Assembly (NCBI GenBank): GCA_030018895.1
Contig: JASEHM010000001.1
Coordinates: forward strand, 2,199 to 66,198
Length of the DNA stretch: 64,000 nucleotides
Direction of reading: 5' to 3'
Origin: Candidatus Omnitrophota bacterium
Lineage (GTDB): Bacteria > Omnitrophota > Gorgyraeia > Gygaellales > Profunditerraquicolaceae
Shown here: positions 15,001 to 63,000 of the stretch, in pieces
How positions within the stretch are numbered: position 1 is the first letter of the stretch
How the letters are laid out: the number at the start of each line of letters is the position of its first letter
Notes under the pieces: generated by a model
What the model was told of the DNA's origin: nothing
Databases searched by the model: none
What the model saw: the letters and a program-made list of their open reading frames with translations, nothing else
Program-made: the position numbers and the translations under genes

Positions 15001-18000
15001 AGCTTAGATTTGGCTCTGAATCAGCAGAAAGAGCGGATATTCTTTGTGATACAAGGCAGAGGAGATGAATTAAAGGAGATTTATAAGAAATTAAGTGTCA
15101 GGACTCTTCGCAATGACGCGTTAACATCAAGAAGTAAAATTTTAAAAGCGGCCTTAGAGGCAATAATAAGATTTGAGGTAACAGTTCAGCCCCCGGAAGT
15201 AACCGTGTCATTGCGAGGAGCGGCAGCGACGAAGCAATCTCTGGTTAAAAGAAATAATAATGTAAAAGTGCCGGTAGCATCGCTTCCTTCTTCTCCGGCG
15301 CTACCAGCTGGGGAGAACACAACTACACAGGCAGGGACATTTATGGCAACAGGTGGCTCAGTTCTTACTGGAAACGCGCTTAATGGCACTACGTCAATAT
15401 ATCCTGCTATTCCGTACTCAATAAGCGTTTATCATTTAGGCAATAGAACAACACAGATTCCCATTAATATAGGTTCAGTAACTATACTTGGCCCGCCTTA
15501 TGGTCCTTCGACTGAAATTTACTCAATTTTCAGCCAAGGTTTTAGCATAAATGGGCAATCGAATCAACTATTTGGCGCACTTGTAACAGTTTGTTCAAGT
15601 AGCATGGCTTTAGATAATACTAAAACCGTAGGTTCTGGAGTTGCAAGCAGGGAAAGCAACAATACAGAAGATGCCCAAAGTGTAATCGCAGGTTCTGTAA
15701 ACGGAACTGGTGATGCTAGTAGTGCGATTATTAGAAAGGTACCAGGATTAAGATTACCTGAACCTTTAAGCAGGTTACCAAAGTGGCTTAATATTACGAT
15801 AGCGCCTCTTGGATATTCCTCATGTACTACGGGTTCGCCTAAAAAAGGCGCATCAGGTGTGCTTGGCAAGTTTTTGTTGTCTGAAGTTTTTTCTTTGGGT
15901 AAAAAGGACGAAGTTAGTGGTGCCGGAAGTGCGATTGCTGCTAAAAAGCAACTAAAGGCTTGGAGTCTACCTAATAGAGCAGATAAAACTTCGGGTCATT
16001 CTTTAAATGTAACCAATTCTTTTTCAAATAGAATTCCTGCAACATGCGGTTCGAATAGTTTCCAAGTTAACGATTTGGGAAATACAGGACGTTTTCTGGG
16101 TATAAACAACATAGAACTGAATTCAGCCGCTAACCATAAGGCACATGGATCAGCTCCTCCTTGGAATGTATTTAATTCTCTGCCCAATAAAATTTCCGCA
16201 TTATTATTTGCAAAATTCAACAATCGCCCCTTTAATCGCATCCTTAATATAAGCACCGGCATTCCATTAGAAGCGCTAGATTCAATTCTTTTCAATAAAA
16301 ATCTATTCGTAGAAAATAGCGGCACACAGGGTCATAATTACTTTAAAAATTCCGCAAGAAAATCTAACGTAACAGATCAACTTTTGAATGTATCTCGTCA
16401 TTGCGAGGGCAAAGCCCGAAGCAATCTCAAAATAGAGATTGCTTCGCCTTCGGCTCGCAATGACATCAATTATGTTAGTGATACTGTCATTGCCAGGAGC
16501 GACAGCGACGAAGTAATCCTTCTGTATGTCATTCCGAGCGAGGCCGTAAGGCCGAGTCGAGGAATCTATGTTCTTTTTAGATCCCTCGACTCGCTTTGCT
16601 CGCTCGGGATGACAAGACAACTGTCGCTCGCTCGGGATGACAAAGCGCTTCCGAAGGCTGAACTGTTACCTATCGCGGGATTTGCCGCAGGCACTTTTTC
16701 AGGCACTTTCACTGTTTCTGCTGATAATGATTTGAACATTCTGGCGGTAAAGGTAAATGATACTGCTTTGGTTAAGGTGAGCGGCAGCACAATAACCGCC
16801 CAGAAAAGTGTTTTCAAAATAGGGAATGACATTGTCATTGGTCATGTTCTCTCAGCGCAAAACCAGGAAAAAGAAAGTGGTTCCCCGATGGCAAAAGGTA
16901 TACCTGTTGAACCGCTGAACTTGGTTCAAAGAGAGTTAGAACTGCAGGCAGTCCAGATTATAAATTATTTAGCTAAAGTGAAGAAGGTAAATTTTGCCCA
17001 GGCAAAATACAAAATAATAATAGAAGCTTTAATGTCTATATTTGAGATTATTGGCGCAATAGAAAAAATTACTTGTCAAGGCCCTCCTTGGTCTGTCCTT
17101 ATTTTCGTTATTTTAAAAGGTCAGTATAATCAAGGAGGAAAAAATGTTGAAACTAATAGAATTTTAAAATCAGATGAGAACCTTAGAAACTCAATATGCA
17201 ATTCAATATTTGAACCAAATGCGCCAAAATTGTCATCTCTGGGAACAAAAGGAAAGACAGCTCAAAGCTCTCTTAAGCAGATCTCAAACAATGTCAAGGA
17301 AATTAAATATAACTATGGCATAATAGAGTTAAATTTCTTACTCGCTTTCGCCACTGTTTTATTAATCAAGCCGCAAATGCTATTTACCAAAACAGGTATT
17401 TTAGTGTTTGCGGTTTTTGTTGTTTCTAGCAGCCTCCCAGCGACCCCCCTCCTGGGACTGACCTTCGCTACGGAGCTGCTAGAGCAACAAATAATATTTG
17501 GAGGTGCGCTATGTGTCCTATTAAGTTTAATGAATTACAATTTAACCACATTGTTGAATCTGCAACAGGACCCACAGTCTTTGCAGCGGCTCGTGAAAAT
17601 GGCAGCAGACATTTCAGGCTCTTCCTTATTAATGAAGAAACTGGCAGTGTTAGAGTTCGTAATGGCAGTGCTAATACCTGGGAAGAGCTTTGGGGCAGTG
17701 CTCACGACAGTATCATCAACTGTCTTATTGCAAGCCGTAATAGCTGCATCCTCACTTATAGGACTAGAACAGGTTTCTAAGCGGTTTTTTTCTCCGTGGG
17801 TAATTATAGGGATGTCTGGTATTGCTGGTGTTGGCATAGGTTTTGTTTCAGCAAATCCGGTTCTTTTAAATTTCGTAATTGGAATAGTGGCTGGTTGGTT
17901 ACTTATACGAGAAATAAATAAAAATGTATCCCAAAGACATTTACAATCTTATAGAAAAGCTTCAACACCATGGCCTTTCCTAAAAATTGCTGTTCCTCTT

Positions 18001-21000
18001 TTAATGATTTTTTATGCCTGTTCTGACCTTCTTGACGATAAATTTTTGAAAAATAGAGAATTTATAAGAGGTCCAACCGTAGAATTGGTTCTTGATGTTA
18101 ATAAGGATGGAAGAGGAGATATTCGTATATCTTATCCGGAAAAAGATAAAATCTTTTCTAATGATTGGAAAGTACTGAGTGAGGTTCTTAGCGGCATACC
18201 TCCAGAAGATTTACAAAAAATAAAAGTAGTGGAACTTCGTTGGGAGCATGGTTCTTATAATTATCGTCCTGATTATAGCAAGAAAGAAGGAAAAACTCTT
18301 TATCTTACCATACAGAGTCTCAGACATTATGAGTGGGATAATGGTTTGAATATTTCTATTGACGGCAGCCCTAAGGTGGATGCTTTACGAAAACAGATTG
18401 AGGAGTGCCTTAAAACTTCCAGCTCCGTTACCTCAGATAAACGTATCTTGAGCCTGTTTGATCTTGCAAACAACAGACGAAGAGCGCAAGTAATAATCGG
18501 TATCTTAGGTATTACTTTACTTTCTTTCTTAAAAATAGCTCCTTCTGTTGCCGCAGTGCCTGAGGCAGAACAAGTTTTAAGAAACCCACCTGTAGAGATA
18601 TTTTCTCATCATACCTCCACTGTTACGCCTGTTTTTCCATTAGAATCAGCTCAAGAAAAATTTTCTGATGATGAAATACATCAATTCTCTACATTTGAAA
18701 AATTTGAAAAAATAGATGAGTTTGAAAATGTTTTGACCAATTATAGAAGGAAGAATGAAGGGTTTAACAAATTATATAAGGAAATAATTGAAGAAAAAGG
18801 CGTTGAAATTGTCTTCTTAAATAAAGATTTTGGTTTTCCTGCTGAATATAGGGTGTGGGAAAGAGAAAATGGAACAATTTTGTTTGATTTGCCCCAGTTT
18901 AAAAGTGGAGAGGAAATGGTTGTTGCCCTGGCACAAGAGTTATTCCATGCAGAGCAATTTATAGGAATAGCCCAGAAGACAAAATGGATTTCTTTCGTGC
19001 CCTTACGTTTATATTTAAGGGGTTTATTCTTTAGTGTGGAAAATGCATTTTTTGGAAGGGTATTTTTTGAAAAACCCGCCTTTGATTACGCTGAGAAAAT
19101 TAGAAAAGATTTTGGCTTACCCCAGAAAGATAAGTGGGAGGATCTGGAAAGATTTTATCAATTTCAACGACCAATGGATATTGTAAAGCCTTTCGTTGCA
19201 TTATTCCTATTGGTGGCATTAATGGGGCTTGGATATTGTTTTGTATATTACTTTGTAAAGAAAAATAACTTTTCATTAAATACCTTTAAAAAAGTAATAG
19301 TTCAGCTCTTGGAAGCGTCTCGTCGTCATTGCGAGCGACCGAAGGGAGCGAAGCAATCTCAAAAACGTGATTGCTTCGTCGCTGTCGCTCCTCGCAATGA
19401 CAAAATGCTTCCAAGCGCTGAACTGTTACTTAAAAAAGGAAATACCTCCAGCTCCATTACCACAAACTTTATAGAGGAGATAGTAAGGTTTAATGAAGAT
19501 TTGGAGAAAGCTGAAAATATTCCGTATTTAGTAAAGAAAGATTCTTGTTCTGTTGGTTCTCCGATTATGGGTAAGGCGGGCTCTTATTTAAAACACGTCA
19601 TATTTCAACAAAAAGGATATTTAGTAATTCTTGCTTTTGTTGTTGCTTTTGCCGCAGCATATTTGATGTCTATCCCTGCTGGAAGTATAGCTGCTTTATA
19701 TGAGGCGGGGGCTGCTAAACTGATTTTTTTACAAAAATTACAGTTGTTCGGTTTGTTTATGGCTTGTATTACTTTGGCAGTAATTATGCTTCAGTATTCC
19801 TTTACAGCTGTGATAGGAGTTATGAAAATCAAGAAAGGTAAAAATGCAGTATGGAGATATAGCTATAGAGAAATCTTCGGTAAAAAAGATTACCAGGCCT
19901 GGAAATCGCGTCTCAACTATGGAGCGCGTCGTTTGACGTTTGAGTATTTAAAGAATAATTATAAGCCTGTTGAGCATGGCCCGGTTCGGGATATTATAAA
20001 TACATTTAAGAGCTGGAAAGTTTCAGTGATAGTGTTTCTAATAGTTTCACTTGTATTAATTACCGCTCCGGAAGCCGTACTAGGATTAGCGGTTTTTGTA
20101 AATGCTCTGATTGTTACCTTACTTTTTCGGATATTACTAAATGCTACGATTTGGTTCTTCTATGATTCCTTCCCGCGCCGTACTGCATTAGTTGACCTGG
20201 CATATGCGTATTATAAAAAAGATCTATCAGGTGTTGCCAATAAGTTTATAGTAATAGATGAGAATAATCCTGATGGCCGAGCAATAATCTTGACAGACAT
20301 TGAAAAAGAAGCAGATAAATTCAAAGCTGAACTTAGAATCGGGAGCAAAGGTTACCGTAGGCAGCTTTTTGTTACCCGGTTAATAGAAATGGCTCCGCTT
20401 GAATCAGCAGGGCTCAAGTTTGTGAAAAGCAGGATGACAATTATCCTGCTTAGCGCGATCATTGTCCCTGCGCTTATGCTGAAGTTTATGCCGGGAATGA
20501 GCAGCGAATCATTCCTTTCGGAAGGATGGCTGCAAAACTTCTTTATAAAGTATCACTTTCCTCATACCTGGAGCGAGCTTATGCATACGGCGTTCCTTGT
20601 ATACGGGTTCAGGTACTTTGATTTAAAAAGAATAGCTATGATGATCTGGTCAGCAATGCTGAATAAAGTCTTTCCGGGTATGCCTATTGATATAAGCGCG
20701 GCTTATGATTTATATAAAAGGAAAAATAATGATAAAAACGTGAAGAAGTATCTTAAGCTTGCGCTTGAAAGAGGACTTTTAAACTCCTGGGGCAGAAAGA
20801 ATTTGAAAACGATATTGCGCAGTGAAATGGAAATGAACAAAGTTGTATTTGAAAAAGTAGGTAAGTTTGAGCTTGGATGGTGGGTAATCTCTCGCCTAGT
20901 GGCAATTATCATTACAGCGTTTGTATTTATACCCTTGATCCCTGTTTTTGTCGTTTTTTATCCTTACGTTGCAGGAAAGAGAAAACAGGGAGTAAGAGTT

Positions 21001-30000: not shown

Positions 30001-33000
30001 AGCAGAAATCTTAACGATGATGTGGCGAATAGTATGCTATTTAGGTTATTTTCTGCCCATAGAGAACGTGTTAAAGAAAGTAGGGAAATTAGAGATGTGG
30101 CTTTAGATCAAAATAATTTTGTAATGATTGATAGTGGTAATAAGATGCAGTGGGATTTAGATAAGGCATGGCATAATCGCATAGACAGATTTTTGCATTC
30201 TAATGCTATAGTGGGATTGGTAATTGGTTTCATTGTTTGCTGGGTGTTTATTATGTGGTGGATATTGAAGTTATTTGTGCCTAAGGTGAATATTAACTCA
30301 GCAGATAAAGAAGAGCTGACCCAAGTATTTTCTCCACATGATGCTGGCAATATTATTTCTCTCAGAACAAAACTCGATGTTATAAAGAATATATCAGAGC
30401 TTGAAGGAGAGGACAGAGGAATACCTATATTTAGAGATATAACAGTCAAGAAAATAAAGAGAAAAATTCGTTTTGATGAAAAAACAGGAGGTATCACCAA
30501 CATAGCAATAAACGATCTCAGGAATACTACGCTTAAGACACTGTCAAATACTATTCTTGAGCCTGTGGCGGGGTATATCAACGATCTTATTGAACAGAAA
30601 TTTATTACTTTAGGAGAAGTAGAAAATATAATACATGATTTAGCGCGTAAACTATTTGAAAATGTTCTTCCTGTAGAGTTGGTAAGGGCGAAATTATTAA
30701 GCAAGATATTTATGCGCGCTTATTGGGATGATAATTTACTTTTTAAGAATAGTGTAAGAGAAAGTTTGCGAGTATCAATAGAGGGTATCTTCCGGAGAGT
30801 TGGCATGCCGATGTCGAAAGAGTCTGTCGACCTATACATTAATGAAATCATCCAGGAATTTTCCACGCAACGTCCTGGAGAATTTGTGTACCAAAATGAC
30901 AGAAGTAAATATAAAGACAGTAATAAACATGAAAGCGGTGATAATCTGTCGCTCAATACGCATCTTTGGGTTTTTGATCCAAAAATGGGCTTCCAACTGA
31001 TTTCATTGGAGGATTTTGTACTGCAATATAAAGTCGTCTATACCATGGTTCCTTTCTTCGGAGGCCATACGCCTGTAGTTCGTTGGTTCGCAATAGAGAT
31101 AAAGAAGCTCTTGGAAAGCAAGAGAGATAGTGAGGTAAAACCGTTCCTACAAGCACATCGTAAGTTTTGGTATCAGGTGCTAAAAGACCAATTAGATAAT
31201 AAATGGGAAAATATGCGCGATGACCGTAGAAAAGGGCCTGCGTATAAAGATGAAAAGACAAAGCAATGGCAGTATCTTTTAACGTGGGAAGAGTTCAATG
31301 ACCTATTCCGCTATTTATTAGAAGAAGATGATTATGGCGCGCCACTTGCTTTTAAGGATACCGCTGAGTTTTTGGCATACAAGAACAATGTTATGGAAAA
31401 TGTAATTAATAAGATTTACGTTCCTGTACAAACAAACGCCTCCAGTCCCTTTACAGATAGTATGTCTAAAGAAGAAATACAGGATTTAGGGAGCACTTAT
31501 CTCAAGTCATTTATCCTTTACTCAAGAGAGAATTTAGGAATACCTCGTTATGATAGAGATACATATAAAGAGAATGATAATCAAAGCAGATTATGGAATA
31601 AGATTAGGCAATATATTCCTATTGTTAGAAGATGGAGGAGTCCTGAACGAGGCGAATTAGGAGTGTGGGCATTTGTTGCGAGTAAGCTCCTATTTAATAA
31701 GAAATTCTGGAGCCAGGACAAACGAGATGAAAAAAGAAAATTAGGCGTCGAGAAAAATGAGGCGATTAGCAAGATTCCTGTTTGGTTAAGAATAGTTTTG
31801 TATATGGTATTATCGGCACTAAGTATTTGGTTAATCCCTTCATCTTTAAATATTGTTGGATTATCTTTAACCTTGCCCTGGTGGCTGAAGGGCATATTTT
31901 TTATTGCAATTGTCGCTACGGCAAGGCTTTTCTTGGGAGAGCGCACTTTAAAATCCCGCCGGTCATCCTTATTCTGGGGTGCAGTAAGTATAGTAACGCT
32001 CGGATTTATTGTTTATATCATTGGATTTGTTGCGGTCAATTGGATTTTTATGCCAATTCCTTTTGAAATTAACCTGTTCAGCTTAACTCTTTATCTGCCT
32101 TGGTGGACAAAGGCCGTTTTAGTTGCTCTATCAGTCTCACCTTTTCTGGATATGTTTTTTCTTACCTATTTCTCTATAGCAAACTTAATGAAGGCAGGTG
32201 TACGATGGTACATAGGTTGGAAATATAAGTTTTATAAAGTTAGGACATTTGAACAAGCAATGCAAATTTTACCAGAGATTCTAAAGAATAAAGAGAATTG
32301 GAATAAGTTTAAAGATATTGTGGATGATTATTATGAAATATATCGTCTGACAACAGCCGAACACGGTATGTTTATTAAGGTTTTAGAGGATATTCAGACG
32401 AATGCTTCTAGAAAGGATAACGAACCCAAAGAAATTAAAAAATTAAGGATTAAAATTACAGAACAGGAAATCAAAGATTTTGTAAATAAGAAATTCCGTA
32501 AAGATATGTCTTCCGAACCAAGAGACCTTTCTGAGTTGCGTTCTTTTGTAATACAGATAAGTGGTTTTGGCGAAGCTCCGTATTTCCTTTTCACGGATAT
32601 TAATAAGCTAGATGCAGGCAAGATTCAGACCCAACTGGGGATGTTTGCTAAATCTTATCCTGACCAGTGGCAGGTGTTTGTGGAGAGATTGGAAGAAGAG
32701 AAAAATATCATTAATGAAAAACAAAAGCAAGAATTATTGAAACTAATTGAGAATCCCGATTATGTCCTTAAGTTGTTTAATGACGCAGATTCACAAAAAG
32801 CAAGAGAAAAAATTGAAGAGTGGTTTAACCTGAATATACAGTCAGGTTATGCCAATATAAAATCAGCACTTAAATTAAAAGAAGTATACAAACATTATAT
32901 AAAGAAATTTGTTCCTGGCTTGGATGACGTAAAGGTTGAAGCTTTAGTAAATGATTATCTCCAGTTTGTTTTTATTTATGATCAATGGGCGCAAGAGATA

Positions 33001-39000: not shown

Positions 39001-42000
39001 TCTGTTGGCACCAAACAGCTTGAAGAGGCCAAGAAGAAAATCCACGCTGAAGCCTTACCTATCATAGAAGACATGGAAGGTAGGCTACAGGATTTACGCC
39101 GAGACTTCAAAGAAGATAGTTTCTCCTTGAAAAAATTAGAGGACAGTTTGAATAGCCTCTTAGAATCTCTTAAGAAAAGAATCCAAGAGGTTCAGGATGA
39201 GAAGACTGTTTCTGTGTTAAATGTCTGTGTATCTAGCATCTCTCAAATCCTGCTGCGTCAGATGCTCATTGAGGTTTTACGCCGCGGTGGCGCTGGCTCA
39301 AAAGCATGGGCTATACCCATAGAGGGTGAGTGGTTGGATACTGGAAGAACCATCGAGGAAGCACAAATCATTCTGGCCGAGGGAAAAGCCAACAGGCAGA
39401 TAGCCTCGGTGTTTGACTTTGAGAAGTCCATTGCCGCAAAGACCAATGTAGCAAGCCACTCTTTTGTCAGCATCATTGAGGCAGAACCTAAATCTCAAGT
39501 TGCCACAGATTCCATTCAGATTGCCTCTTATCTGAAAGGCAAAATTCATATGGACTCCAGATCTCAGGTGCACCTTGTAGACTGGCAAGGCGATTTACAC
39601 CTCAACTCAGACGTGGTGATGTCTGAGGCAACCACCAGATATCAAGAGAAAGAATGGGTCGTGCACCTGCTCTGGGGATTACAGGATGGAGAGACCAATA
39701 AAATCAAGACCCACATAGGCCGTTCCTTAGAGGAATGGTTCACTGAGTTAAGTATTGACATAGATAAGATTTGGCCTCCTGCAACTGCGCATCTCTTAAA
39801 CACTGCCAGAATCTTCCCTGGCTTAAGTCAGCAGATTTTAGAGCAAGGAAAGCAAATAGATGACTTGGATAGAGAGCTCTTTGACTCTATGAATGATATC
39901 TGGGGCTTCTTACAAGGACATACTGCCCCAGTTCCTGTTGCCTGGCTGAAAGCTTTAGAAGCAGAACGCCTCTTCTCTATGACTGATGCCTACAGTAAAC
40001 CCGCCACTGAACTGATGCAACAGAGAAGAGAAGGATTGATGAGGAAGTTGAAGAAAACCTCATCCCCTATTTCCACCCCTATTTCTAACTTCTCAGATAT
40101 AAAGACATTAATAAAAGCTTGTAGAAATGCAAATCCACAGGCAAAAATATTTGTTCCAGAGAAATCGAGTTTTGGAAAACTCTCTTTAAAAGAAATTCTC
40201 AGTTTAACAACCTCCAGTTCCCTGATACTTTCCTTAGAATCTAGACTAGTAGCAGCCATCGCCAAGAAGAATTCTTTTATCCAAGGCTCCAGCCCGCTTT
40301 CAGAAGTTATCCTGCCTGGTTTAACGTGGGGATTTTATGTTTTTGAGATTCGCGAATCAAAGGTAGGTGGAATTGCCGATGTCGCTGAAGGCCTTCCGGA
40401 AGCAATAGTAAGGGCTAAGACGCTTGATGGAAAGCCTCATACAGTTTATCGGGTGACCCCGTATTATAGAGATATATTCACTATGACTAATAAAATTCGT
40501 TTGGAAGACCAGAAATTAGTAGCTCAACTATGCATTCCTTATCAGCACCAAATAATTACTGTGGATGTATATAAAAGATTGCATGTTTCTAATATGGTTG
40601 ATTATCTGCTTGTAAACGAAATATTTAGCCGCCCATATGATAAATCAGATACCAAGAATCAAACTGAATCTGAAGAAGAGGTAGTAATATTTAATATTGT
40701 TTCAGCAATACTCATTATTTTAGGGGAAACTCAACCTGATGTGCTGCTTCTATCAGATTGGCAGACAGGTTTACTGCTTTCCTATTTAGAAGAAAGTGTT
40801 TCAGAGCCAACCGCGATATTAAGGAAGGTTGTTGTTAAGACAGAGAAAGGCAATGTTTCTGGTGAAGAATTAGTAAACGAATTTGTACGTTTAAAAGTAT
40901 ATGAATGGATGATACCGATTTGTTGGATTAATAATGAAGCTTATAGAGGGCAATTTCCTGTAAAAAATAGAGCGGACTTTAAGGCAAAAACAGGATTAGT
41001 TTCTCAGCATGGCTTTGAGTATGCAAGATGGATTACCCCAACAAGAGAAAGCGAACAATTTATGATTATGCTTAAGTTAGGGATAGAAAGCACTAATCGT
41101 TGTGGAGGAAAAATAGTCACAGTTAGCCAGGCTTATGCCAGAGAAATTATGGGTATAAACCTTAAACCAGAAAATCATCCTGGGATGCTTCACGGTATTT
41201 TAAAAAGAACAGAGGTTACAGGAATACTAAACGGCACTCCTAAAGAATGGAAATACATTACGGATTTAAAACAGAAGAGAGAGGCGAAGCGGTTGTTACA
41301 AGAAATATTAGAGTTAGATAAGTTTGCCTCTGCAATGTGCGGAGGGGAAATAGAACGATTAAAGCGAAAAAATTTTTGCTGTTTGGGAAAACGCTTGCGT
41401 TTTAGTTATAGTTATCTTAGCTCCTTGCCTTCTGGCTCCTTATTATACCTCGCCGTGGCTGGTGGGATACAAGGCGTTGTTGGTTCAAGCCAGAGGGCAG
41501 GGAGTTTTTTGATAAAGGAGTTTATTAATAAGGTAAAAAAATTATTACCACAAAAAGGAGGCGCAGGATGTATAGACTCAGAGAGGTGCAGATTAGGTCT
41601 TTTGAGGTGTTGCAGGAAAACAAGGGAATTTTTGTTCTGGCAGGGTTTCCGGGTTGGCATTCTACTTATGATTTCCTTATTCAGTCTAATGGAGAAGTTA
41701 AGGGAAGAACACACGATAATTGGCAGCTCCTTACAGATGAGACAGCTGAGATTATTAAAGGGAAGTTTAAAGAGGTACTTACAAGGAATTGATTTAGCGT
41801 TTGAAAGCAGCTCGGCGAGGTTGACGCAGGCACAGAAAAGAGTTACTAACTCGCCGTTAAGGTTGGAGAAAGAAACAGAAAAGATAAACAAAAATTTGAA
41901 TGAGCTTACGAAAAATGCAGTGGCATTATCAGACCAAAAAAAATTTTCAATTGAGGAGGATATACTTCTTATTGAGACTAACCTTAAGGAAATAGGGCGG

Positions 42001-45000
42001 TTGGGGTCTTTAGCAGAAGATTCACAAAAAATAGAAAATGACATTGATTTTATTCAATTACTCAATGAGGTAATAGATGATTTTAAAAAGAGGTTTCCTG
42101 ATATTACTTTTGTGGTTGAGAATAAGGCAGATGAAATTAAATTACCTGGTATTCGAAAAATAATAGAACACATCTTAAGGGAAATTTTCCAGAACAGTGT
42201 TAAGCATGAAGGTAAACAGATTAATATAGAGATTTCAAGAACAGAAGGCAAAATAGAGATTAGTATAGAGATTAGCATAATTGATAATGGTGAGGGTATT
42301 TCTAAAGAGAAACTGGAGAGGATTCGTAAAGTTTTGGCGCAGGCAGATACAAAGCAAAGCGAAAAAGAGAGTAGGGGCAGAGGCCTTTCTTATTTAAATA
42401 AACTTCTTTATGAGTACACTTTAATTGAAGAAAACCTAGAAATATATTCTGAAGGTGAAGGCAAAGGCACAAGGGTAAGATTCTTTTTACCTTTAGCTCA
42501 AGAAAAATACAGGGTGCCAGATATTCATAATCGGATAAAATTTATTATCCATGAGATAAACAATATTCTATGTACAGTGCAAAAAGCTTTTTTAAATGAA
42601 AAAAATACTGTGTTGGCAGATGCAACCAAAGGCACAATTTTAGTAGTGGATGATGAAGAAAACATTTGCGTCATATTACAAATGTGTTTCGAACAAGTTG
42701 GTTATACGGTTGTTACTGCTGCCACAGTAGAACAAGGATTGGAGACTTTCAAAGAAAGGCAGAAAGAAATAGGATTAGTTTTAATAGATTATACATTACC
42801 TGGTGGAGATGGATTACAATTAACAGGGAAGATTAAAGAGGTTTCTAAAGATATTCCTATATTTATTATGACAGGAAGGAGTCTACGCGAAGAAGATATT
42901 TTAAACTCAGGAGCAAAAGAAGTAATTCCTAAGCCTTTTAAATTTGAGGAATTACTAAAAAAGGTAGAAGAAGCGGTAACAGTTCAGCGTTCAGAAGTAA
43001 ATCAGGGTGTCATTCTCGCCCCCGTTTTCACGGGGGTAAACTCCAGCGGGAATCCAAAGATGGTTGACAGAATGGATGCCAGTTTTCACGGGTATGACAA
43101 AAACGGGAGGCGAGAACTTCCGGAAGCTGAACTGTTACAAGAAGCGGTATCTTCAGCAGTAGAGATTGTTAAAATGTTGTCATTGCGAGCCCGCCACACT
43201 TTGTGGCGAGGCGAAGCAATCACTTTTTTGAGATTGCTTCTTGCTTCGGTTTCGCCTCGCAATTGCAATGACGCGAAAATGGATTTTTTCAGCGTTTTCC
43301 TAGAATATCACTTGATACAACAAGCCTTAAAGGGTTTTTTCGGTCGACTTAATTCAGACTTTTCTAAACAACTTTTAAGCTCTCGCCAAACAATTCCTTT
43401 AGCAGGTTCTCCTTTTACAGAATTAGTTTCTAGTTCTTTGTTTGTTTTTAGTCTAACAGAGGCTATTAAGTTGATTCAGATTTTTGTTAAGGAGAAGGAA
43501 GGGGCTGAGATTGGAGAGAAGATAGGGAGCCTTAGTTCTGAAGAACTAAACGTCCTTACGGAAGCGATTATTGCTTGGAAAGAGTTGGAAGAGATTGAAG
43601 TAGGAGAGAAAGAAAAGAAAAGATTCATTGATATCTATTCTTCTAATTGCCAGTTCAGTAGTTTTGTTGGTTTTTTAAAAGATGCTATGCAGTCAAGGTT
43701 AGTAGAGCAGAGGGCAGAAAGAGAAAGTATTCTTTATGAAATTGTCGAGGAAATTGGGAAATTAGAGGGGGTTAGCCCGGATAAAATAGAGGAAGAGTTC
43801 GCTAGATTTAAGATGAAGGCATTAGAGGAGCTTCTTAAGGCATGGGGGTATAGCTATGAGATAGATGAGGAAGATAACTTAAGCCTTATTTGTTCAACAG
43901 ATGGACTAAAGGAGTCGAGTTATAAATTAACACCGCGAAAGCCTAATGACCCGGAAAAGAGTTTTCTTTGGGATTTTCTTAAAAAGTATTGGGAGCAGAA
44001 AAATACCCTTTCTGGGCAAAAGAAATTATTGGAAGGATTTAAGAAAAAATTGCCTATAGAGATAGTAGAAGTAATTATCTGGGATGGCGTTTTTCGGGGG
44101 CTATGGATTAAAGATAGATTCGCCTTTCTTAAGAAATTTTATCCGGAAAAAGTAGATAATGGAGTTTTAGATCAACTTGCCTCTGGCCATATCTTCTCAA
44201 GATTACAAAATATTTGCCTTCCTCAAAATTTAAAAGACGACTTAACTTGTTATCAAGGAGTTTTGCCTAAAGAGCTTATTTTTCTCCTTCCTCTCCCGGG
44301 AAAAGGAAAATATATTTATATGTTACATAACTGGGCTCAGGCCAGTATTGAAAATAAGCAATTTATCCCTCTAATTAAAGAAAAAAAGATTTTTTTCTAT
44401 TTGTTTAGGGCAATAGATGTCATTATTAGAGAAAAGGAAAAGATAAAACAAAGGATAACTGATAGCCGTACAGGTTTGTATAATGCCTGGTATTTAAAAG
44501 AAGAGCTGGAGAGACAAATAGGTTTGGCCAAAAGGCATGATAATCCCCTGGCGATATTAATGCTGGACATAGATCATTTTAAGAATTTTAATGATACATA
44601 TGGCCATTTAATAGGCGATATGGTTTTAAAGTATGTTGCTGAGGTGTTTAAGAGGATGGCAAGGAAAACGGATATTGTTTGCCGTTATGGCGGGGAAGAA
44701 TTTATGATTATCCTGTCTAACGCGGATTTAGAAGGAGGGGTGGTTGCCGCAGAGAGAATTAGGGAGGCGGTGAAAGAAATGAAAATTAAAAATATTAATG
44801 AAAAAATAACTATAAGCATTGGCGCAGCTTCTTTAGATAAGAGTTTAAGAAGTATCTCTGACTCTGAACAATGCCAAAAGGCATTTATTAAAGAGGCTGA
44901 TCAGGCGGTTTATATAGCCAAGGCAAAGGGGAGAAACCGAACAGAATTTACTATAAAACAGGTAATCCCTTATTTAGAGCCGGAAGAAGAATTATTTCCT

Positions 45001-51000: not shown

Positions 51001-54000
51001 AACTTTCGTTTCTTGGAGAGGCTGGGATATTTTCCTGTTACAGATACTCAATTGAACCATTTTTCTCGAGAAGTTCAGGACTTACTGGATGCGCATCTGG
51101 AGTTGGGCATGATGCCTCAAGAGGCAGTCTTTTCTTTAGGAAGCATGTATTATTTGCAAGGAATATTTTTGCTGGCTTTAGATTATAAAGAAATGGCAAG
51201 AAAAAATATCAACAAGGCTATTGACCAATTTGGTTTAATTATATTTAAAAAGGGGGGTCCTTTTGGGCTGATGGCATACCAATTAATTCTAGAAATTCAT
51301 CAAGAGATGCCGTTATTCTTTGGCCAGCTTATTCACAATGGTGGAATGGAATTAACGTTAGATGGGTTAGCTGAAAAGTATGGGAAACATTGTCCTGAAG
51401 AGATTATAAAAGGCCAGACAGAGTTCATAAAGAATTTGACAGAACAGTCCCAGTCGGAGAATGAACTCGCAACTTCTTCTTCTGCAAGGAGTTGTGTAGA
51501 AACGGTACTATTAAATTCACTAAACTCTTCAAGCCCTGTTAAGCGGGTAGGTCCTGTTGGATCCGTCTCGAAATTTGAGTCTCTGCTACGAAAAGAGTTG
51601 GCCGCGATGAAGGATTCCGGGGGAACGAAGTTGTACCCGTCCAATGTGTCGCGTCAGAATAGGGTCACGATTGCGCCGTGTCGGGTGGATAGGGTCACGA
51701 TTAGTAAAGAGGCCCGGGAGATATTCAAAAATGCAAGGCCCAAGTCCAGCCAGCCGTCGATCATGTCGGAAAAAGACCTTAACGGCAATCTTGATTTCAT
51801 ATCGTCCCTGTGTGAGTTCGTAAAGCAGTTTATAGAGGTATTTTGGACAGTGAAATCTTCTGAGGATACGGATCACGAGAACAAGGATGGCGTTTCTGCG
51901 TCTTCTGTCAAGGAAGGATCTTCTTCGGTCGTTTATTCCAGCAGTCCGAAGGCTTCTTCCTCATTTAAGCAGGCACGAAGCCGCGCTCCGCCCTTTGTAG
52001 TTGTGTTATTAATAGTTCCCTTCATATTTTGTGAAGGAGAGACAAGGAATTTATCAAAATCCCTGCCCCCATCTTTACCTTCGTTTTCAAAGCACAGTAG
52101 AGTTCTTGAAACAAAATCTCTACCCACATCTTTATCTTCGTTTTTAGATCATAGTAGAGTTCCTCCCCTTTCAAATTACAGTGGAGTTCTTAAAAACGCG
52201 CGCATTAATTCAAAAGATCGATTTGGAATAAAGGCATGGACAGCCTATACAATGTTGGATGAGATTACTAAGAAGCTGTATTCTGAAAAAACAGTATCAG
52301 AGCGTCGTTTAATAAATAAATACGTATTAACCAATATTTATCATGAATCGCTTTTGATATATAGGAGGCCTATATATCGTGGCGGGACTGAGCGCGGCTT
52401 GGCTCAAATAAAGGTGGGCACTGCCAGGGATATCCTTGAGAGGCTTGTAAAGGGAAAAGCTAATTGGGAGGAGTTTATTGCAGATATTAGCGGTTATTCC
52501 TTCTATGCAGACCTTTTAAACGAGAATAATGCTGTTCTTGGCAAGATGTTAGAAGATAATGATGGGTTTAGTTTTATTCTTTCAACAATATATAGTATGA
52601 ATAGGTTAGATAAGGAATCTCTGCCTGTAGATTTAGAGGGGATGACAAAGTGTTGGGCCAATTATAATGGGATTGGGAAAAAGCAAAGAACGCCTCCAGA
52701 GGAAAAAAGATTAAAGGATTATAAAGTTCATGCAGAGATAATTAAGCCTATTCTTGAAAGAATCATTTCTTTAGAAAGGTTCTTAAATTTTGAAGAGTTT
52801 CTGAATCCTCCAAAAAATATTGGAAACTGTTTCCGTCCCAATCGGGAAACTGTTTCCAGCGCAATCGGGACAGTGGGATGCAGTGAAGTTGACATAAGCT
52901 GTTCTGCTTTGAAAATGAAGGGGTTTGTCGGTTCGCCAGTTAGCCGGTTGCTTGAAATTGCCGGCTCGCCGGTGAAATATAGCTTGTTAGTTGATATGTT
53001 GTTAATACTTGTTGATTTTGATGGTTTTTGCAAGGCAGGGATGGAAGATGTTCACGGTCTTGAGGATAGGATTAGGGTCTCCTCGCCCGTATTTTCGATA
53101 CCGAAAGATACCGAAGATTTGGATTTTGCTTGGAATTTGATGGAATTAAATGCTTTTAACCCCGGATTAGAACATAAAATTTCTTTTGTCTCCAGTCCAA
53201 TTTTTAAAATGCGGCCGAAGGTAACAGTTCAGCGTTTGGAAGTTCCAAGCGCTGAACTGTTACCTTCGGAGACTGAAATTGGGGGTAAGAAAAGGAAGGA
53301 AGAGAATGATCTTTTTATTGAGATGGATACGTTAAAAAAGAAATTGATGGGTTGTCTTAGAAAAAGTCCTTTACTTGCAAAAATATTACAATGGATTTTA
53401 GATGAATTAGAAAAAAAGAACAATAATAATGGAATCATAAAAAATAAACTGTCTTTTTTTAGTCCACACCAGAAGCGTAAAGTAAAACAAGAAATTTTTG
53501 CTTGGATGAATAAGGAGCATTGTGAAGTGGCAGCCGAGTTTTCTACGGAGTTAATTTTTCTAGTTGTGGATTTGGTTAAAAATATAATCTTTTCTATAAA
53601 AAACGAAAAAATAAATAAAGATAAATTAGAGGAGATTCAGTCTTCTTTGGATGAGATTGTCGCTTTGAATAACAAGATTGAGAAAATAGCGGAACTGTGG
53701 CGAAAGATAAAAGAGGAGATAGTGGAACAAAATGTAGGCATAGTAACATCTATCGTGACTAAAAACTATTTTAATGGGGCTTTATTCTTTGAGGAGCGGA
53801 TACAGGCAGGGTTGATTGGGCTAGCTGAGGCTGTAGAGAGGCACGACTACAGAAAAGGTATATTATTTTCTACCTATGCTGATTGCTGGATTAAGCGGGA
53901 AATACTAATGGTTATGCAAAAGGAGAGTAGTGATATCTGGATTCCCGTGTATATGCAAGAGAAGCATACAGGGCTTGAGAATAAAAAGACAGAATTAATC

Positions 54001-57000
54001 CAGAAACTTCTAGGAGACCCGACAATTGGCCAACTTGCTCAAGCCTTAGGATGGCCAGTTGAGGAAGTAAAAGAAGTTTTAAATGTTCCGATGCATGTAG
54101 TTTCTCTATCTACACCTGTGGGTAAGGAAGGAGAAACTTCTCTTGGCGAGCTTATAGAGAGTCCACAGGCACGGGATTTGGAGGGTTCAATCATAGAAGA
54201 ATTGAGTGCTGAACGGCCTGAAGAGACCCTTAAAAAGGCCTTGCATCAACTTCTTCTCATCGATAGGCTAATTGTATGTTTGCATAATGGCTTGTCTATT
54301 ACTGGAGAAGTAGTTAGCAATGAAGAAATTAATCAACTTAAATCATCTATTAAAAAAGAAGCACTAAATAAGGCTATTATGAACATGAACCCCTTAAGTT
54401 ATCGCAAGATTGGTGAGCTATTGGGATACACCGGGGAACGCATACGTCAACTCAAAAAACAAGCGTTACTAGATTTAAAACAACTAATAGGGGGAGGTAT
54501 AATCTTAACCGATAGTATGATACTTAGCAAAGTTAAGCCTATTAAGAAGATCCCTGGTGTAATCAGAATTTTAATGGAAGAAAAAGGAATTATTATTCCA
54601 TCTATGGTTGTTAAGTCGTTAGGGATTTCTATTCCGACACTTACTAAATATATTAAAGATAATCCTTCTGATGAGATAAAAGATTTGATGAGGCAGCTAG
54701 GTATTCATAATCAGATTCTTCGGGCGATAAAAAGGCTAGAGAGGCTGCCCAAAGCGAAACAAAAACTAATTACGGTAAAGATGCTTGTTCAAGAAATAAA
54801 GTTTTTTTCTTTAACAGACATAGAAAAAGCAAAAAATGAAATAAATAAACGTATAGAAAAACATCTCGGGGCGAGAAAAGAAATATTAAAACATGTGGGA
54901 GCGGTGCCAATATTCAATTGGGAAACTGTCAATTGGGAAACTGTTTCCAGCTTAATCGGGACAGTGAGACGCAAGGTCAAAATCGCCGGCTCGGAAGTGG
55001 ATTTATCTCTAACTTCTTCTTCCGTAAGCAGTTCCGTTATTAATTCAGCAGGCCAAAGCAACAACGCGCCGGAAAAAATTGAAATAATTGAATTTTCGTT
55101 TCTGAAAAATACTATGGGTTGTATCATAGAAGCTGGTAAAAGAGATATGCAAAAACAGAAGATTGAGAAAATTTTGATTTTGCGTAATTTAGGATTTATT
55201 TTAAAGGAACTAAAAGAGTTAAAGAATATGAATGCTATTTTGAATAAATGGGCCATAGAAATTATTATAAGGTTTAGAAGACAGCTTATTGAAGAATTTA
55301 GAAAAACAGAGAATTCTATTTCTAATGGCAAAGAAAGCAGTAATGACATAAATATTAAGGAGCAGTTTAAAAAAATAAATATTAGAGAAAAAATAATATT
55401 AAATTTTTATTGGGTAGGAAAGAATCGGTGCTGGAAGATTTTAGAAGAAGGATTGAGTAAGCCTTGGTTTATTCCTGATATTGGAAGAGTGGATGAAGAG
55501 CTGGTGCAGGAGAAAAAAAGAAAAGAGGAGTTGATAGCCACCATCTTAGGGCAGTTACAAACAGGCACAATGATTCAACGTCAGATAGAAGAGGAGCAAG
55601 ATTTAAGACAATATATACCGCGAATAAAGATAAAGATTGAGTCTGCGGAAGAAAATCTGGGAGAGGCAGCAGTATGGGCAGAGGAGGTTTTCGCAAAAGG
55701 AGTAGATAGTTTTAAAAAAGATGCAGATACAGTGGAGAATAGGCAACTCAAGGCATTTGCTATGGAGTTAGGGGGCGTATTGGAGAATATGATTTGGCTG
55801 GGAGTTCGTGCTTATGATTATCAAGATGAAGAGACGATAGATTTTATAGGTAAGGCCAAAAAGGAGGAAATGATTAAAGATTTAGTCAAAGGATTGATAA
55901 GTAGTATTGATCAAGGCCTTAGTAAAGAGCCTGAAATTATGCAATATACTTTGCAAATTATAAGACAATATTTGCAGGGGCTTCTTTTAGAGGATTTAGC
56001 CTTAGGATATGAAAACGTGCTTATGCAAAAAAGGGTTAAGTATGCATTAAGAGAAGCATTTATAGGTTTCAAGAGGCTAAAAACAGAGATGCTTGATTAT
56101 CTGCATGAGCTTTTGAAAGAAAAAAAAGAAAAAGTAGATGTTAATAAGTATTTCAAAGAAGGCATTGAAAGAATGCTTCAGGGTATAGGAAATTATCTTA
56201 TTAATAAAGTAGAATATCAAACAGCGCATTATGAAGGAGAAGACTCAGTGATTTTAAAATTGAATTATATACCTACTCCACAAGAATTTTTAAATTGCTT
56301 TATAAAGGTTTATGGCAAAAAATTGGCTGCAATTATTACTTGTGCAGGAACGCCGCAGGCACATTATGCTTTGTTGGCTGAGTCTGAAAGAATACCAGTT
56401 TTTATTATTGCCAGGGAAGATACGGATTTAATTAAACAAAATGATAAAGTTGTGATTTTTAGTAATGGAGAGGTGATTATTAATCCTAGTCCGCAAACAC
56501 AAGACGAATTTGCCGTTGCACAAGGAGTTCAACAAAAGATTGACGAATTTTATAGTGAAAAGGCGCCGGAGTTGTTAAAAATACCGGTTGAAATGAACGC
56601 TGATTCTAAAGATGAGATAGAAGTAGCAGTGAATATTGTCCAGGGTATTGGCCTGGTAAGGACTGAGAACTTATGCCAGGGAATTTTACCTTTTTTAATT
56701 ACTGAATGGCAGGATTTATTCAGGGAAATTTTAAAATCTGCAAAAGGAAAAAGAGTTACTTTTAGAGTCATTGATTATCAACCGGATAAAAAGCCTTTGC
56801 CTTTTGCTTATCAACGCTACCTAAGGCCTAAATGGTGGAAAGATCATCCCCTGGGCAGAGCAGTGGCATTACAGATATTACAGGCTCTCATCAGATTGGG
56901 AAAAGAAGGGTATGGTTTTTTTCGAGTAATGTTTCCTATGGTAGAAGATGTTAGTGATTTGCAGGCAATAGAGCAGATAATAAAAAAAGCGCAAGAGAAG

Positions 57001-60000: not shown

Positions 60001-63000
60001 AGGGCAATTATTTGTTGGAAGATTTTGTATATGAAATTAAATAAAAACTACCGCGAGGATTTATTATGGGTTATGCGGAATGAGTCTGAAAGAAATAACC
60101 TTATAAATGATTTAAAGCAGACAATAAATTTTACCGATGAAGAAAAAGAAGATTTTAGGATTCCTTTAGAAGAAGGGATATCTACTCGTACGAGCAAAAA
60201 AATTCTTTCCCAATTATTACGGTTTTATAGTAAAGAACCAGTTATTTATTTAAGGAACCAGGAAGTAGCTTATAGTATATTTAGGCAATATTTTAGCGAA
60301 GCGCTGTTTTTAAGAATCTTTGGTCATTTTCAGAGCAGCCAAAAACATGTTGAAAAAGCTATCCATGCCTGCGAGCAGATATATAAGGTAAAGGATTTAG
60401 GCCTGTTTATGACAACCTTGCCAAGGGATACAATCAATTTTTATCTAAGATTAGCTGATATAGAAGAAAATTCAGATAGAAAAAAACAATTCTTGCAAGA
60501 GGCGCAAGGATTGTGCTGCGGGTTTTTAACTGGTGATTATTTTAAAGAGATTATAGCAGAAGCTGATTCCCAATTAGCTTCTAGAGAGTTTATTAAATTA
60601 ACAGCATGGAAACCTGAAAGTTTGTGGGAAGGCCTTGCAAAAACTTCATTAGAAGGACTGCTTAGGAAAAAAATTCAGCTATATGTTTTTGATATGAATG
60701 GGGTCAAGAATATTCAGAAAAAGATAGAAGAAATATTATTTAAAAAATCAATAATATTCTTCGGAGGGACAAGCAGAAGAGCAGGCCTTAAACCACTTCG
60801 CAATTATCCTGTTTCTACTAATATAAATATAAAAACATCAGAAATAAATCAGGATAATGTTTTTTTATCTATTGACCTAAAGAAAAAGGTAGACTATTTT
60901 AAGGGAATAATTTTTTCTATCTTACTTGAAAAGAAATGTGAAGAAAATTGGGATATAAAAGGCAAAATAATTCCCTATTTTCAAGGGCCCTTGATATTAA
61001 TAACAAAAAAGAAAGAGCAAATTCCTGAAGTATGTAATGATTTGGTAGAAGAATTACAGGGGGCCGTTGAAAATCAATATACAGTAGAGACAACAAGTAT
61101 TGGTATGGAAGTTTCGTCGATTGACCGAGGAGATGTACTGCTTTATTTAGCAGAGCAGATTGCTAATAAAGACAAAAAGAACCTTATAGATTTATTAGTG
61201 CAAACCTTTGTCGTAGGCAATAGCCGCGCAGATCTATTTATGCTCAATATTGTAGCCAGTCATGGCGGGTTAGCTATATTTGTGGGCCAGAATATTCCAG
61301 AGGGCCTATCTAAAAAGGTTCTTGTAATTCCGCTACAAAATCCTCAAGGAATAGAATTTCTTATAGAGTTAATTGCTAAGGCCTCCAACTCGGCAGGTAT
61401 AGAAAATCATCTCCAGAGCCTGCAAAATTCTGTTAGTGAAGAGGAAACTGTTTCCAGCGCAATCTTGGCAGTGGGATGCAGTGAAGTTGACATAAGCTGT
61501 TCTGCTTTGTTGAAAATGAAGGGGTTCGTCGGTTCGCCAGTTAGCCGGTTACTTGAAACCGCCGCCTTGGCGAAGGGGGATGGGGGTCAGTTCTGTTGTA
61601 ATTCTTTGCCTATCAATGGGGGAATTCTGGGGACACAAGACTTAATTCGGAGTACTGATTTGCCATCCGCTATTGCTATCGCCTCGCCGGTGAGGGATTT
61701 GTTTGCAACTTCTTTTCCCATAATAGATTCCGCAGAAACGACACTAAATATACTGTTTTTATCTCGTTTAGGCGCTCTGCGTACAGGTACAAATGCCCCG
61801 CCATTAGTTGTTAATAATGCCGCCTTTGTCTCGGTATTATTTCGCACCTATTTAGAGACCTCATCACAACCTACCCCTTCTATTACTATTCCAGAACTTA
61901 TTGTCTGCTATTTATTACTTGCTACTATTAAGGTATCCTTTGCTTCGTCGGCGGTGGAGAATTTATCTACAAGTTTTTCTTTCGCAGGCATTTTTTTGAC
62001 TATTAAGAAAGTGTTTAAAGGGTCGAAGATAATAATAGATAAGGTTATTGGAGTCGGCGAAAATGGATATAGAAAAATAGAAAAAATTATCTGGCAATTT
62101 TTACAGAAAGCTTGGCAATGTATACAGAAAATTCCGGTCGGCTTTGCGCCGGACAGTGAAGGCCGGGTTACCGTTGATGCTCTCATAAAATATCTTTCTG
62201 TGGCTCCTTTCGCAGTAGATGCGACGTTGGAAGCCTTCTTTTCGCAATTGAAAAATCCCAAAGCTCAGGCAGCAATTGCTTCCGGTGGCCTTGGTTTTCT
62301 TGCCGGAGAAACCCTTAATGCTTGGGTCAAGGTATCTCAGCGGGTAGTCGGGTTTATGCCTCTTTATGAAGGTAATATTAACTGGGATAGTGAGGCAGGG
62401 ATACAGCCGATTATCGGGTCAGGCGGCAAACCGCTTACTCTGGAAGTCAATTTTAAGGAGGTCGGGCAATTACAGGAGAAGCCATATAAGGTTAGCTACT
62501 ACATTATTAACGCCAATGGCACTCCGGTAATCCTGGCGCGCCAGCCGAAGATTAACTACGCGCTTTATCCTTGTGATTCGGATAAATATCGGCAGATGGC
62601 TTTCTTAGGTAGGGCATATACGGAATTTTTTAAATATTTAGGCGTTGTCCCGGATATCTTGCGCTTCAATGAGGCGCAGGTATTTTTCCTTCTTACTGCG
62701 ACTGATAATGATGTTGATTGGTTTGCTCGGGAGAGAGAGAGAACTAAAACCGAAAGCCGCAGCGTTCATGAGAATACCAAATACATCCTTTTTACCACGC
62801 ATACCCCGGAAGTAGCCGCTTTACCGAGAGAAAACGTAGGCCGGTTAAAGAACCTTATCGGTAGCGGGATGATTCCGAAGAAAGCAGATGGAAGTGATTA
62901 TGCGGATGGGGAAGAATTGGATTTTGTTCATCATTTAGTTAACGACTCGCGGGTCGTCGTTATCAATGGCGTTTCCCAGGAACACGGGGAAGTAACTAAG

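Follow-up and report, generated by a model that had tools for sequence, protein, structure and literature searches.

The subject of this report is a probable seam in a giant gene, located at positions 40,288–41,830 of a 64,000-nucleotide (nt) window of Omnitrophota DNA (the window being the whole stretch analysed, with all coordinates given here as window positions), at which a giant open reading frame (ORF) leaves a truncated glycosyltransferase (GT) module of the GT5 type, crosses a short structured junction and then runs over a complete small gene that lies in another frame. The giant ORF fills frame 1 of the entire window. Open stretches in frames other than frame 1 reached at most 118 codons across the window, and codon usage gave frame 1 as the best frame in 99.5% of 150-nt windows. 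Along the giant ORF we found Pfam domains of the types Helicase_C, Peptidase_M23, fucose pyrophosphorylase, GT5, HATPase_c, Response_reg, GGDEF, sigma-70 r2–r4 and PEP-utilizer, and the nearest relatives of the GT region carry the names Candidatus Omnitrophota or Omnitrophica. The window is one ORF of the Omnitrophota giant-gene type, as described by West-Roberts et al. 2023 (bioRxiv 10.1101/2023.11.21.568195). In the giant proteins called ‘Archaeovorin’, GT5 glycogen-synthase-like domains are reported to be the most prevalent glycosyltransferase domains, with GGDEF, HATPase_c and pyruvate-phosphate dikinase-type domains reported as well (bioRxiv 10.1101/2023.11.21.568195). The domain set of the window ORF, of which only an internal part lies in the window, matches the Archaeovorin-type list. 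Because West-Roberts et al. 2023 describe such domains, a GT5 domain inside an Omnitrophota giant gene was already known, while keyword searches of Omnitrophota giant-gene papers (West-Roberts et al. 2023; a 2026 paper) found no nested small gene described.

The small gene encodes the protein MYRLREVQIRSFEVLQENKGIFVLAGFPGWHSTYDFLIQSNGEVKGRTHDNWQLLTDETAEIIKGKFKEVLTRN and is headed by a strong Shine–Dalgarno (SD) sequence, the combination being one of only two AAGGAGG-N4-9-ATG sites on the plus strand of the window (coordinates of all features are collected in Table 1). An earlier examination of the DNA letters, made before any database search and here called the sequence-only reading, had pointed out this 74-amino acid (aa) ORF with its perfect SD-ATG, correctly as to its existence and position, and had regarded it as the recognisable continuation of the GT5 domain. 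Position-specific base composition, a test that does not depend on stop codons, favoured frame 3 by +14.5 nats over 41,536–41,820 and gave no phase whatsoever in 41,341–41,535. In codon usage, too, 41,536–41,820 is the strongest exception to frame 1 within the window. A sliding 225-nt scan gave its frame-3 maximum of +15.3 at 41,566, against a window mean of −12.9 with a standard deviation of 6.0, and the top twelve frame-3 windows of the scan all fell within 41,521–41,686.

We performed an exhaustive phmmer search of 1.84 billion (1.84e9) representative proteins, using as query the 86-aa open frame-3 stretch, in which residue 13 is the Met of the ORF. This gave 21 matches at E ≤ 1e-3, the best having an E-value of 5.5e-8 and 47% identity. 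The matched proteins were nearly all 74–89 aa long and aligned over nearly their whole length, with several alignments beginning at Met, and the named family members are hypothetical proteins of Candidatus Omnitrophica. One candidate member, P0022 (768 aa), was rejected, being an ankyrin-repeat protein with a spurious match. The family consensus reads M.xL..L.I......GIFV.A.YPGW..EY.F.I..DG.VKGRT..G.W..LS.E.A.II..K., and the window copy retains all of the conserved positions (W30, F36, G42, G46, W52, L55, I63 and K66). Since GIFV.A.YPGW is conserved across the family, the GIFVLAGFPGW of the window copy is a hallmark of this small-protein family. A hidden Markov model of the family, which included the window copy, matched only 41,568–41,786 in the window. 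The family had no Pfam, NCBIfam or PHROGs model and gave one chance-level PADLOC match among 20 members; the 74-aa product of the window is itself not on record as a called gene. As judged from these comparisons, the frame-3 ORF is evidently an intact, full-length member of a conserved small-protein family that is unrelated to glycosyltransferases.

Modelling with AlphaFold2 (AF2) on the family alignment gave five consecutive beta-strands followed by a C-terminal helix, with a predicted local distance difference test score (pLDDT) of 91.6 and a predicted template modelling score of 0.78, which predicts a compact independent fold of the small protein. Because the model consists of five beta-strands and a helix, and not of beta-alpha-beta units, the small protein would not be a Rossmann fragment. 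Structure searches with the small protein resulted in weak, uninformative matches only. As a separate observation, residues ~43–73 of the family profile (window 41,694–41,786) weakly resemble residues 275–305 of the RecA C-terminal domain (W..L...ETA.EI..K), at E 0.93 against a single RecA C-domain and at lower E only from artificial multi-RecA fusion chains, which we treat as a lead and not as a finding.

Contigs encoding family members provided six independent nested copies and eight free-standing copies. The nested copies are those of the window, L012, L015 (identical in L016 and L017), L018, L022 (nearly identical in L023 and L024) and L027, with the host ORF being open from contig end to contig end; the L012 contig carries an ORF of at least 9,482 aa. 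The host ORF occupied the +1 frame of the small gene, so that the small gene lay in the −1 frame of its host, at all six of the nested loci, and a strong SD sequence was found 4–7 nt before the ATG in every one of them (AAGGAGG in five, GGAGG in L015). Coding phase switched to the small frame within the gene in every copy, and for L015 and L027 a long-ORF phase of normal strength was seen on both sides of the small gene. Differences among L015/16/17 and among L022/23/24 were too few to measure selection. The free-standing copies are those of L010 (two), L013 (three, a–c), L019, L025 and L028, and in three of these contigs a copy is located behind the stop of a large or giant ORF, namely in L028 (at least 6,803 aa), L013 (at least 1,376 aa) and L025 (at least 760 aa). 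Tandem arrangements were also seen, with three paralogues at 4,333–5,401 of L013, after the ORF of at least 1,376 aa, and two adjacent copies at 9,416–10,270 of L010. In its +1 frame the middle L013 copy (4,612–4,839) is free of stops, and it is overlapped by a 163-codon open stretch.

For an evaluation of the overlapped frames we used a recoding null, in which synonymous codons were drawn at random given the small-protein sequence and the host codon usage, whereupon stops in the host frame were counted. There was not a single host-frame stop inside the small gene in any of the six nested copies, against 3–6 expected on average. The probability of finding no stops was 0.001 for the 74 overlapped codons of the window, about 0.001 or lower for L012, L015 and L018, 0.017 for L022 and 0.020 for L027, which agreed with the notion of the sequence-only reading that so long an open frame 1 was improbable by chance. 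The free-standing copies had 0–5 stops in the equivalent frame, only L013b having none, and the off-frame stop density was 0.088–0.103 per codon. That the stops fall below the recoding null is direct evidence of a constraint on the synonymous codons of the small gene, by which the giant frame stays open. Among the nested copies, pairwise BLOSUM62 scores averaged 123 in the small frame vs 11 in the giant frame. Both frames are thus maintained by selection, the small frame for its amino acids and the host frame against stops.

Table 1. Features at and around the seam, in window coordinates
Feature	Position	Strand	Remarks
Giant ORF	1–63,999	+	Frame 1; 21,333 codons, 0 stops; both ends outside the window
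GT5 N-terminal Rossmann domain with helix to the interdomain boundary	40,288–41,361	+	Frame 1; from PF08323 and tblastn
Junction, about 205 nt	41,362–41,567	+	Frame 1 open; no codon periodicity in any frame
Hairpin	41,421–41,504	+	17-nt arms 41,421–41,437 and 41,488–41,504, 88% complementary; 50-nt loop region; upstream of the small gene
A_AAA_AAA heptamer	41,535–41,541	+	In the giant frame, within a 36-nt stop-free leader of the small frame; candidate −1 slippery site
SD sequence AAGGAGG	41,555–41,561	+	6 nt ahead of the small-gene ATG
Small gene, 74 codons	41,568–41,792	+	Frame 3, the −1 frame of the giant ORF; TGA stop at 41,790–41,792
Return of frame-1 phase	41,793–42,156	+	Weak in 41,793–41,900, strong from about 41,900

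In the junction ahead of the small gene, the phase log-likelihoods of the three frames lay within about 5 nats of each other, and the frame-1 peptide encoded there is rich in Cys, Arg, Leu and Ser. Compared with the rest of the protein, the frame-1 residues of 41,341–41,830 were enriched 4.8-fold in Cys, 2.3-fold in Arg and 1.7-fold in Leu, and homology ends at about 41,361, bearing out the remark of the sequence-only reading that frame 1 here degenerates into a Cys/Arg/Leu-rich sequence. The frame-1 peptide of 41,362–42,156 had no detectable homologue, AF2 gave no confident structure for the frame-1 peptide after the GT N-domain (pLDDT about 30–45), and tblastx of the seam against the window and the loci revealed no internal duplication. 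The RNA fold of 41,341–41,575 was exceptionally stable, with z = −3.4 and none of 200 shuffles being as stable. Structure was also found upstream of the nested gene in L015 (1–255; several hairpins, z −4.1) and in L022 (1–196; a GC-rich stem and a 32-nt direct repeat at 1–32 and 124–155, z −2.9), and the upstream region of L027 showed no unusual RNA structure. These upstream structures may serve to regulate internal initiation or may act in RNA processing. A promoter and terminator scan and an Rfam search gave nothing above chance. Downstream of the seam the giant ORF continues into HATPase_c (~42,157–42,498), followed by Response_reg and GGDEF. On the minus strand, a 210-aa ORF with an ATG start (41,412–42,044) overlaps the seam and is longer than any other ORF of the window that does not lie in frame 1; it was rejected as a gene, having no Pfam match and a codon register that is also that of the ORFs at 30,108–30,704 and 54,789–55,349.

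Upstream of the junction, the identity of the GT5 N-domain was clear. PF08323 (Glyco_transf_5) matched frame 1 with an E-value of 3e-18 and 66.8 bits vs a cut-off of 22.7, and the motifs that the sequence-only reading had listed, KVGGIADVAEGLP, SDWQTGLL and VTVSQAYAREI, are all found in the translation. The N-terminal K-x-G-G motif is also present in frame 1 (ESKVGGIADVA), relatives mostly having Q or M for the K. The GT region of the window was 51–59% identical to five Omnitrophota GT5+GT1 proteins, and tblastn homology to GT relatives covered 40,288–41,361 in frame 1 and nowhere further, which corresponds to residues 12–367 of P0003 (558 aa), a stand-alone relative. The break at P0003 residue 367 falls after a helix ending in LQxxLGL and just before the FMVSRLVSQKG of the relatives. 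In the AF2 model of the GT N-domain, pLDDT was mostly 60–95 for residues ~10–310 and about 30–45 after residue ~340. A complete GT module (P0003 residues ~15–555) is kept in the giant ORFs of L002, L003/L009, L004 and L007, and in the stand-alone proteins P0003 and P0004. The GT5 domain of the window belongs with the Archaeovorin-type GT5 modules, but without the GT1-type C-terminal half that is kept in L002, L003, L004 and L007.

That C-terminal half was searched for in several ways. PF00534 (Glycos_transf_1) gave no match at E ≤ 10 in frame 1 or in the frame-3 ORF, and the C-domain motifs FMVSRLVSQKG, GDIxLFPSLYEPCG and TGG..ESA, found in eight of eight relatives, were absent from all frames of 41,323–42,150. 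A profile of eight C-domain sequences matched the window over no more than its first 31 columns, which reach as far as the LGL at the end of clear homology; in frame 3 it scored −4.6 bits, and in frame 2 it was below zero too. We also used a purpose-written profile-to-DNA local alignment allowing frameshifts, with column-shuffled profiles as the null. On 41,323–42,150 this gave 17.2 bits vs 15.3 ± 2.1 for the null, with 16.5% of the shuffles reaching 17.2, and the positive control L006, in which a GT module is truly split over frames, gave 333 bits. A PDB sequence search with the region returned no GT match, and a MAFFT global alignment of the frame-1 peptide to the C-domain was discarded as forced, being non-significant by hmmsearch and by the local frameshift-aware alignment. 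In scans of genome and metagenome contigs for an orthologous giant gene, the GT module was found only in non-colinear giant ORFs, none of which spans the seam. The absence of the distal catalytic motifs, as stated by the sequence-only reading, therefore extends to every frame, and the C-terminal half of the GT has been lost outright and not moved to another frame.

The positive control is in itself of some interest, since L006 (a 4,978-nt metagenome contig) carries at 232–1,870 a full GT5+GT1 module split over three frames, with P0003 residues 2–426 in frame 1, 392–456 in frame 3 and 448–558 in frame 2, being either a real pseudogene or the product of sequencing indels. Another giant ORF, in L005, has at 10,001–10,111 only the first ~35 residues of a GT5 module (LLPGLNWGFYVFEIPESMVGGVADVAKGLP, about 70% identical), after which the frame continues into unrelated sequence that to the eye resembles a cupin, so that the window is not the only giant ORF with a GT5 fragment.

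In enzymes of the GT-B type the nucleotide-sugar donor binds mainly to the C-terminal domain, and the conserved YEPCG motif belongs to the C-terminal Rossmann half. Because the donor-binding half is lost, the remaining N-domain cannot be a glycosyltransferase alone. At the same time, it does not look like a decaying relic as far as its divergence can tell, with 50–59% identity to its relatives, the range within the family itself being 46–70%, and with two private changes at otherwise invariant columns vs 1–13 in complete copies. The suggestion of the sequence-only reading that embedded domains may be non-catalytic relics was thus upheld in that the GT module lacks its catalytic half, but not in any excess divergence of the N-domain. 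Either the truncation is recent, or the domain keeps a non-catalytic role such as glucan binding. The domain at the 3′ end of the window (62,005–63,999) gave weak Pfam GT5 and GT1 matches only (E about 1e-4). Its TREASGTSDHRPAFNG resembles the EASGTSNMK motif of glucan phosphorylases, with Arg replacing the pyridoxal phosphate lysine, in line with the earlier reading. Segments homologous to this domain lie directly after the GT module in L003 (11,540–12,889) and also in L007 (19,550–20,635).

Considering all of these data, we find it probable that 40,288–41,830 is a seam in a mosaic giant ORF that reads through a still-functional nested small gene. According to this explanation, the GT5-type module upstream would end at its interdomain boundary, and the seam would cross about 205 nt of structured, phase-less sequence and then the complete 74-codon gene in the −1 frame. 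The small gene would be translated by internal initiation at its own SD-ATG, giving a folded protein of five strands and a helix, and ribosomes on the giant ORF would pass the same nucleotides in frame 1, thereby producing a composition-skewed, unstructured linker constrained only against stops. Since free-standing copies are also found after the stops of large ORFs or giant genes, the nested state may have come about when two giant-gene units were fused by read-through, with a small gene between them that is otherwise found just after a giant-gene stop. The sequence-only reading had proposed that the giant gene accretes captured fragments, with selection acting to keep one frame open. The mosaic ORF, with the other coding sequence it has engulfed, and the stop avoidance support this proposal, the captured piece being an intact gene and not a GT remnant.

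Several points weigh against the explanation of a read-through nested gene. We infer both the translation of the small ORF and the read-through of the giant ORF from sequence. The recoding null assumes independent codon choice, and the sample of nested (six) and free-standing (eight) copies is small. It is only in the window that the sequence reaches far upstream of the small gene (41.5 kb), the other nested contigs showing 19–246 nt there, and in those contigs gene callers begin the long ORF 11–164 nt after the small gene. Finally, the giant-frame sequences flanking the small gene are not homologous between loci, so that it cannot be demonstrated that the nesting goes back to one shared origin.

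The alternative that fares best, yet which we find unlikely, is that two separate giant genes stand here with the small gene between them, the downstream one being translated on its own, for example by termination–reinitiation, and the open frame 1 being meaningless. The seam does look intergenic, in that 41,362–41,567 lacks codon phase and has a stable hairpin and a strong SD sequence; gene callers place the start of the long ORF directly behind the small gene in short contigs; L012 has a GAGGAG with a GTG 53 nt after the small gene; and the free-standing copies in L028, L013 and L025 follow the stops of large ORFs or giant genes. However, ribosomes arriving from upstream must continue when there is no stop codon, and the complete lack of giant-frame stops in six of six nested copies, where 3–6 would be expected, indicates selection for read-through. 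Furthermore, in L015 and L027 the giant-frame phase is already present ahead of the small gene, and the window holds no SD-plus-start candidate for a separate downstream gene close after the stop of the small gene, nor any terminator-like site in 41,000–42,200.

A programmed −1 frameshift at the A_AAA_AAA heptamer, by which ribosomes would enter frame 3, add the small domain to the upstream part of the giant protein and end at 41,792, seems very unlikely to us. It would suit the finding that at all six loci the small gene lies in the −1 frame relative to its host, as well as the in-phase position of the heptamer inside the 36-nt leader of the small frame in the window and the T_TTA_AAA at the equivalent place in L012, in-phase A7 heptamers being rare (23 in 64 kb). 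No slippery heptamer was found in L015, L018, L022 or L027, however, and in L022 the small frame has a stop 21 nt ahead of the ATG, the two being separated by no heptamer. The SD sequence and ATG are moreover kept in all six nested copies, and the free-standing copies are translated as separate genes.

The view of the sequence-only reading, that the frame-3 ORF is a frameshifted remnant of the C-terminal half of the GT5 domain, left by an indel after which frame 1 was kept open, is hardly credible in light of the results. The ORF does sit directly after the N-domain, ENKGIFVLAGFPGW has a superficial likeness to GGQLALLGAGDP, and tblastn gave a weak fragment pairing P0003 residues 411–439 with frame 3 at 41,670–41,756 (E 3.3). 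Against this, no GT5 similarity was found in frame 3 by the Pfam, profile or frameshift-aware searches (p = 0.165 in the latter, vs the 333 bits of L006), the ORF matches the unrelated small-protein family from Met to stop, GIFV.A.YPGW included, and the predicted fold is all-beta with one helix. Because the frame-3 ORF is a full-length gene for an unrelated small protein, no indel or frameshift needs to be invoked. Just as improbable is an assembly or sequencing artefact, with indels or a chimeric join faking the continuous ORF, for although the source is of metagenome type and L006 illustrates that frameshifted GT modules occur in such contigs, the same nested architecture was found in independent assemblies from different samples, and errors cannot yield a stop-avoiding choice of synonymous codons.

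Extending the explanation of a read-through nested gene beyond the window leads to a wider proposal, which we put forward as tentative and as having slightly less than an even chance of being right. It says that Omnitrophota giant ORFs grow by reading through entire neighbouring genes that are not destroyed in the process; that a conserved gene for a protein of ~78 aa, normally located just after a giant-gene stop, is retained upon fusion of two giant-gene units as a functional nested gene with its own initiation, with nested copies thereby marking seams; that the small protein would be a dedicated partner in the production or function of the giant protein, such as a chaperone or regulator made in step with the translation of the giant mRNA; and that the orphan GT5 N-domain would be collateral of one such fusion or deletion.

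Two further segments of the window resemble the nested gene in some respects. At 17,430–17,777, the second place at which frame 3 is preferred by codon usage, there are 116 open frame-3 codons, with a GGAGG-N6-ATG at 17,500–17,513 heading an 89-aa ORF, and the frame-1 peptide is strongly hydrophobic and transmembrane-like; as a second nested gene this segment was rejected on its phase, which is weak (+2.3 to +3.9 nats) and probably a composition effect, no homology search having been made with the frame-3 peptide. At 20,454–20,618 a 55-codon open stretch in frame 3 shows a mild frame-3 phase preference (+6.0 nats). Within the giant ORF itself, at 53,700–54,500 and elsewhere, are embedded domains that are normally cytoplasmic and stand-alone, namely sigma-70 regions 2–4, a response regulator, a histidine-kinase ATPase, GGDEF, PEP-utilizer and fucose pyrophosphorylase.

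Among known systems, the closest likeness is to comS, which is embedded out of frame in srfAB of Bacillus subtilis and gives a separate product (PMC8160284, PMC11230408). In both cases a very large multi-module gene contains a small gene that shares its strand but not its frame. Unlike comS, which overlaps a functional domain of the non-ribosomal peptide synthetase, the small gene studied here is overlapped by a host frame that forms an unstructured inter-module seam. The predicted 74-aa protein is also unrelated to ComS, and its gene is found free-standing too, after the stops of large ORFs or giant genes, with nesting that recurs in several lineages in the same phase. A complete ORF with its own start in another frame of the host, and with dual-coding constraint, is likewise what characterises Rz1 nested within Rz of phage lambda. 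The same applies to gndA, nested within gnd of E. coli; in bacteria as a whole, same-strand nested genes with a known function are few (PMC11230408). Genes of the Rz1 and gndA kind are usually ascribed to overprinting, whereby a new frame arises in an old gene, whereas here the nested frame would be the older and conserved one and the host frame the newcomer. This order is suggested because the nested frame is conserved, with free-standing homologues and normal codon phase, and the host frame is aberrant and only stop-avoiding. The arrangement looks like a growing ORF that has taken in a gene already present, and not like a new gene arising by overprinting. There is also a likeness to a stop-loss read-through fusion, in that two coding units would have become one ORF across a seam with intergenic-like features, namely the lack of codon phase, a hairpin and an SD sequence. 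The difference is that a third, intact gene in another frame would here have been crossed without being destroyed, for which selection must act continuously on the synonymous sites of that gene.

The origin and upkeep of bacterial genes that are tens of thousands of codons long are an open question, and the seam records one step of such a process, in which a catalytic module was cut at a domain boundary and an intergenic-like stretch together with a whole small gene was absorbed into the ORF. It also provides quantitative evidence that selection across the seam acts, in the giant frame, only against stops. For studies of nested genes it offers a candidate with conservation across lineages, for which the free-standing homologues provide natural controls and whose fold is predicted with confidence. 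With regard to annotation, gene calls that take the giant ORF hide nested genes, such as that of the 74-aa product. Because the GT5 case lacks its catalytic half, a Pfam domain in a giant protein should not be taken for a complete enzyme as a matter of course.

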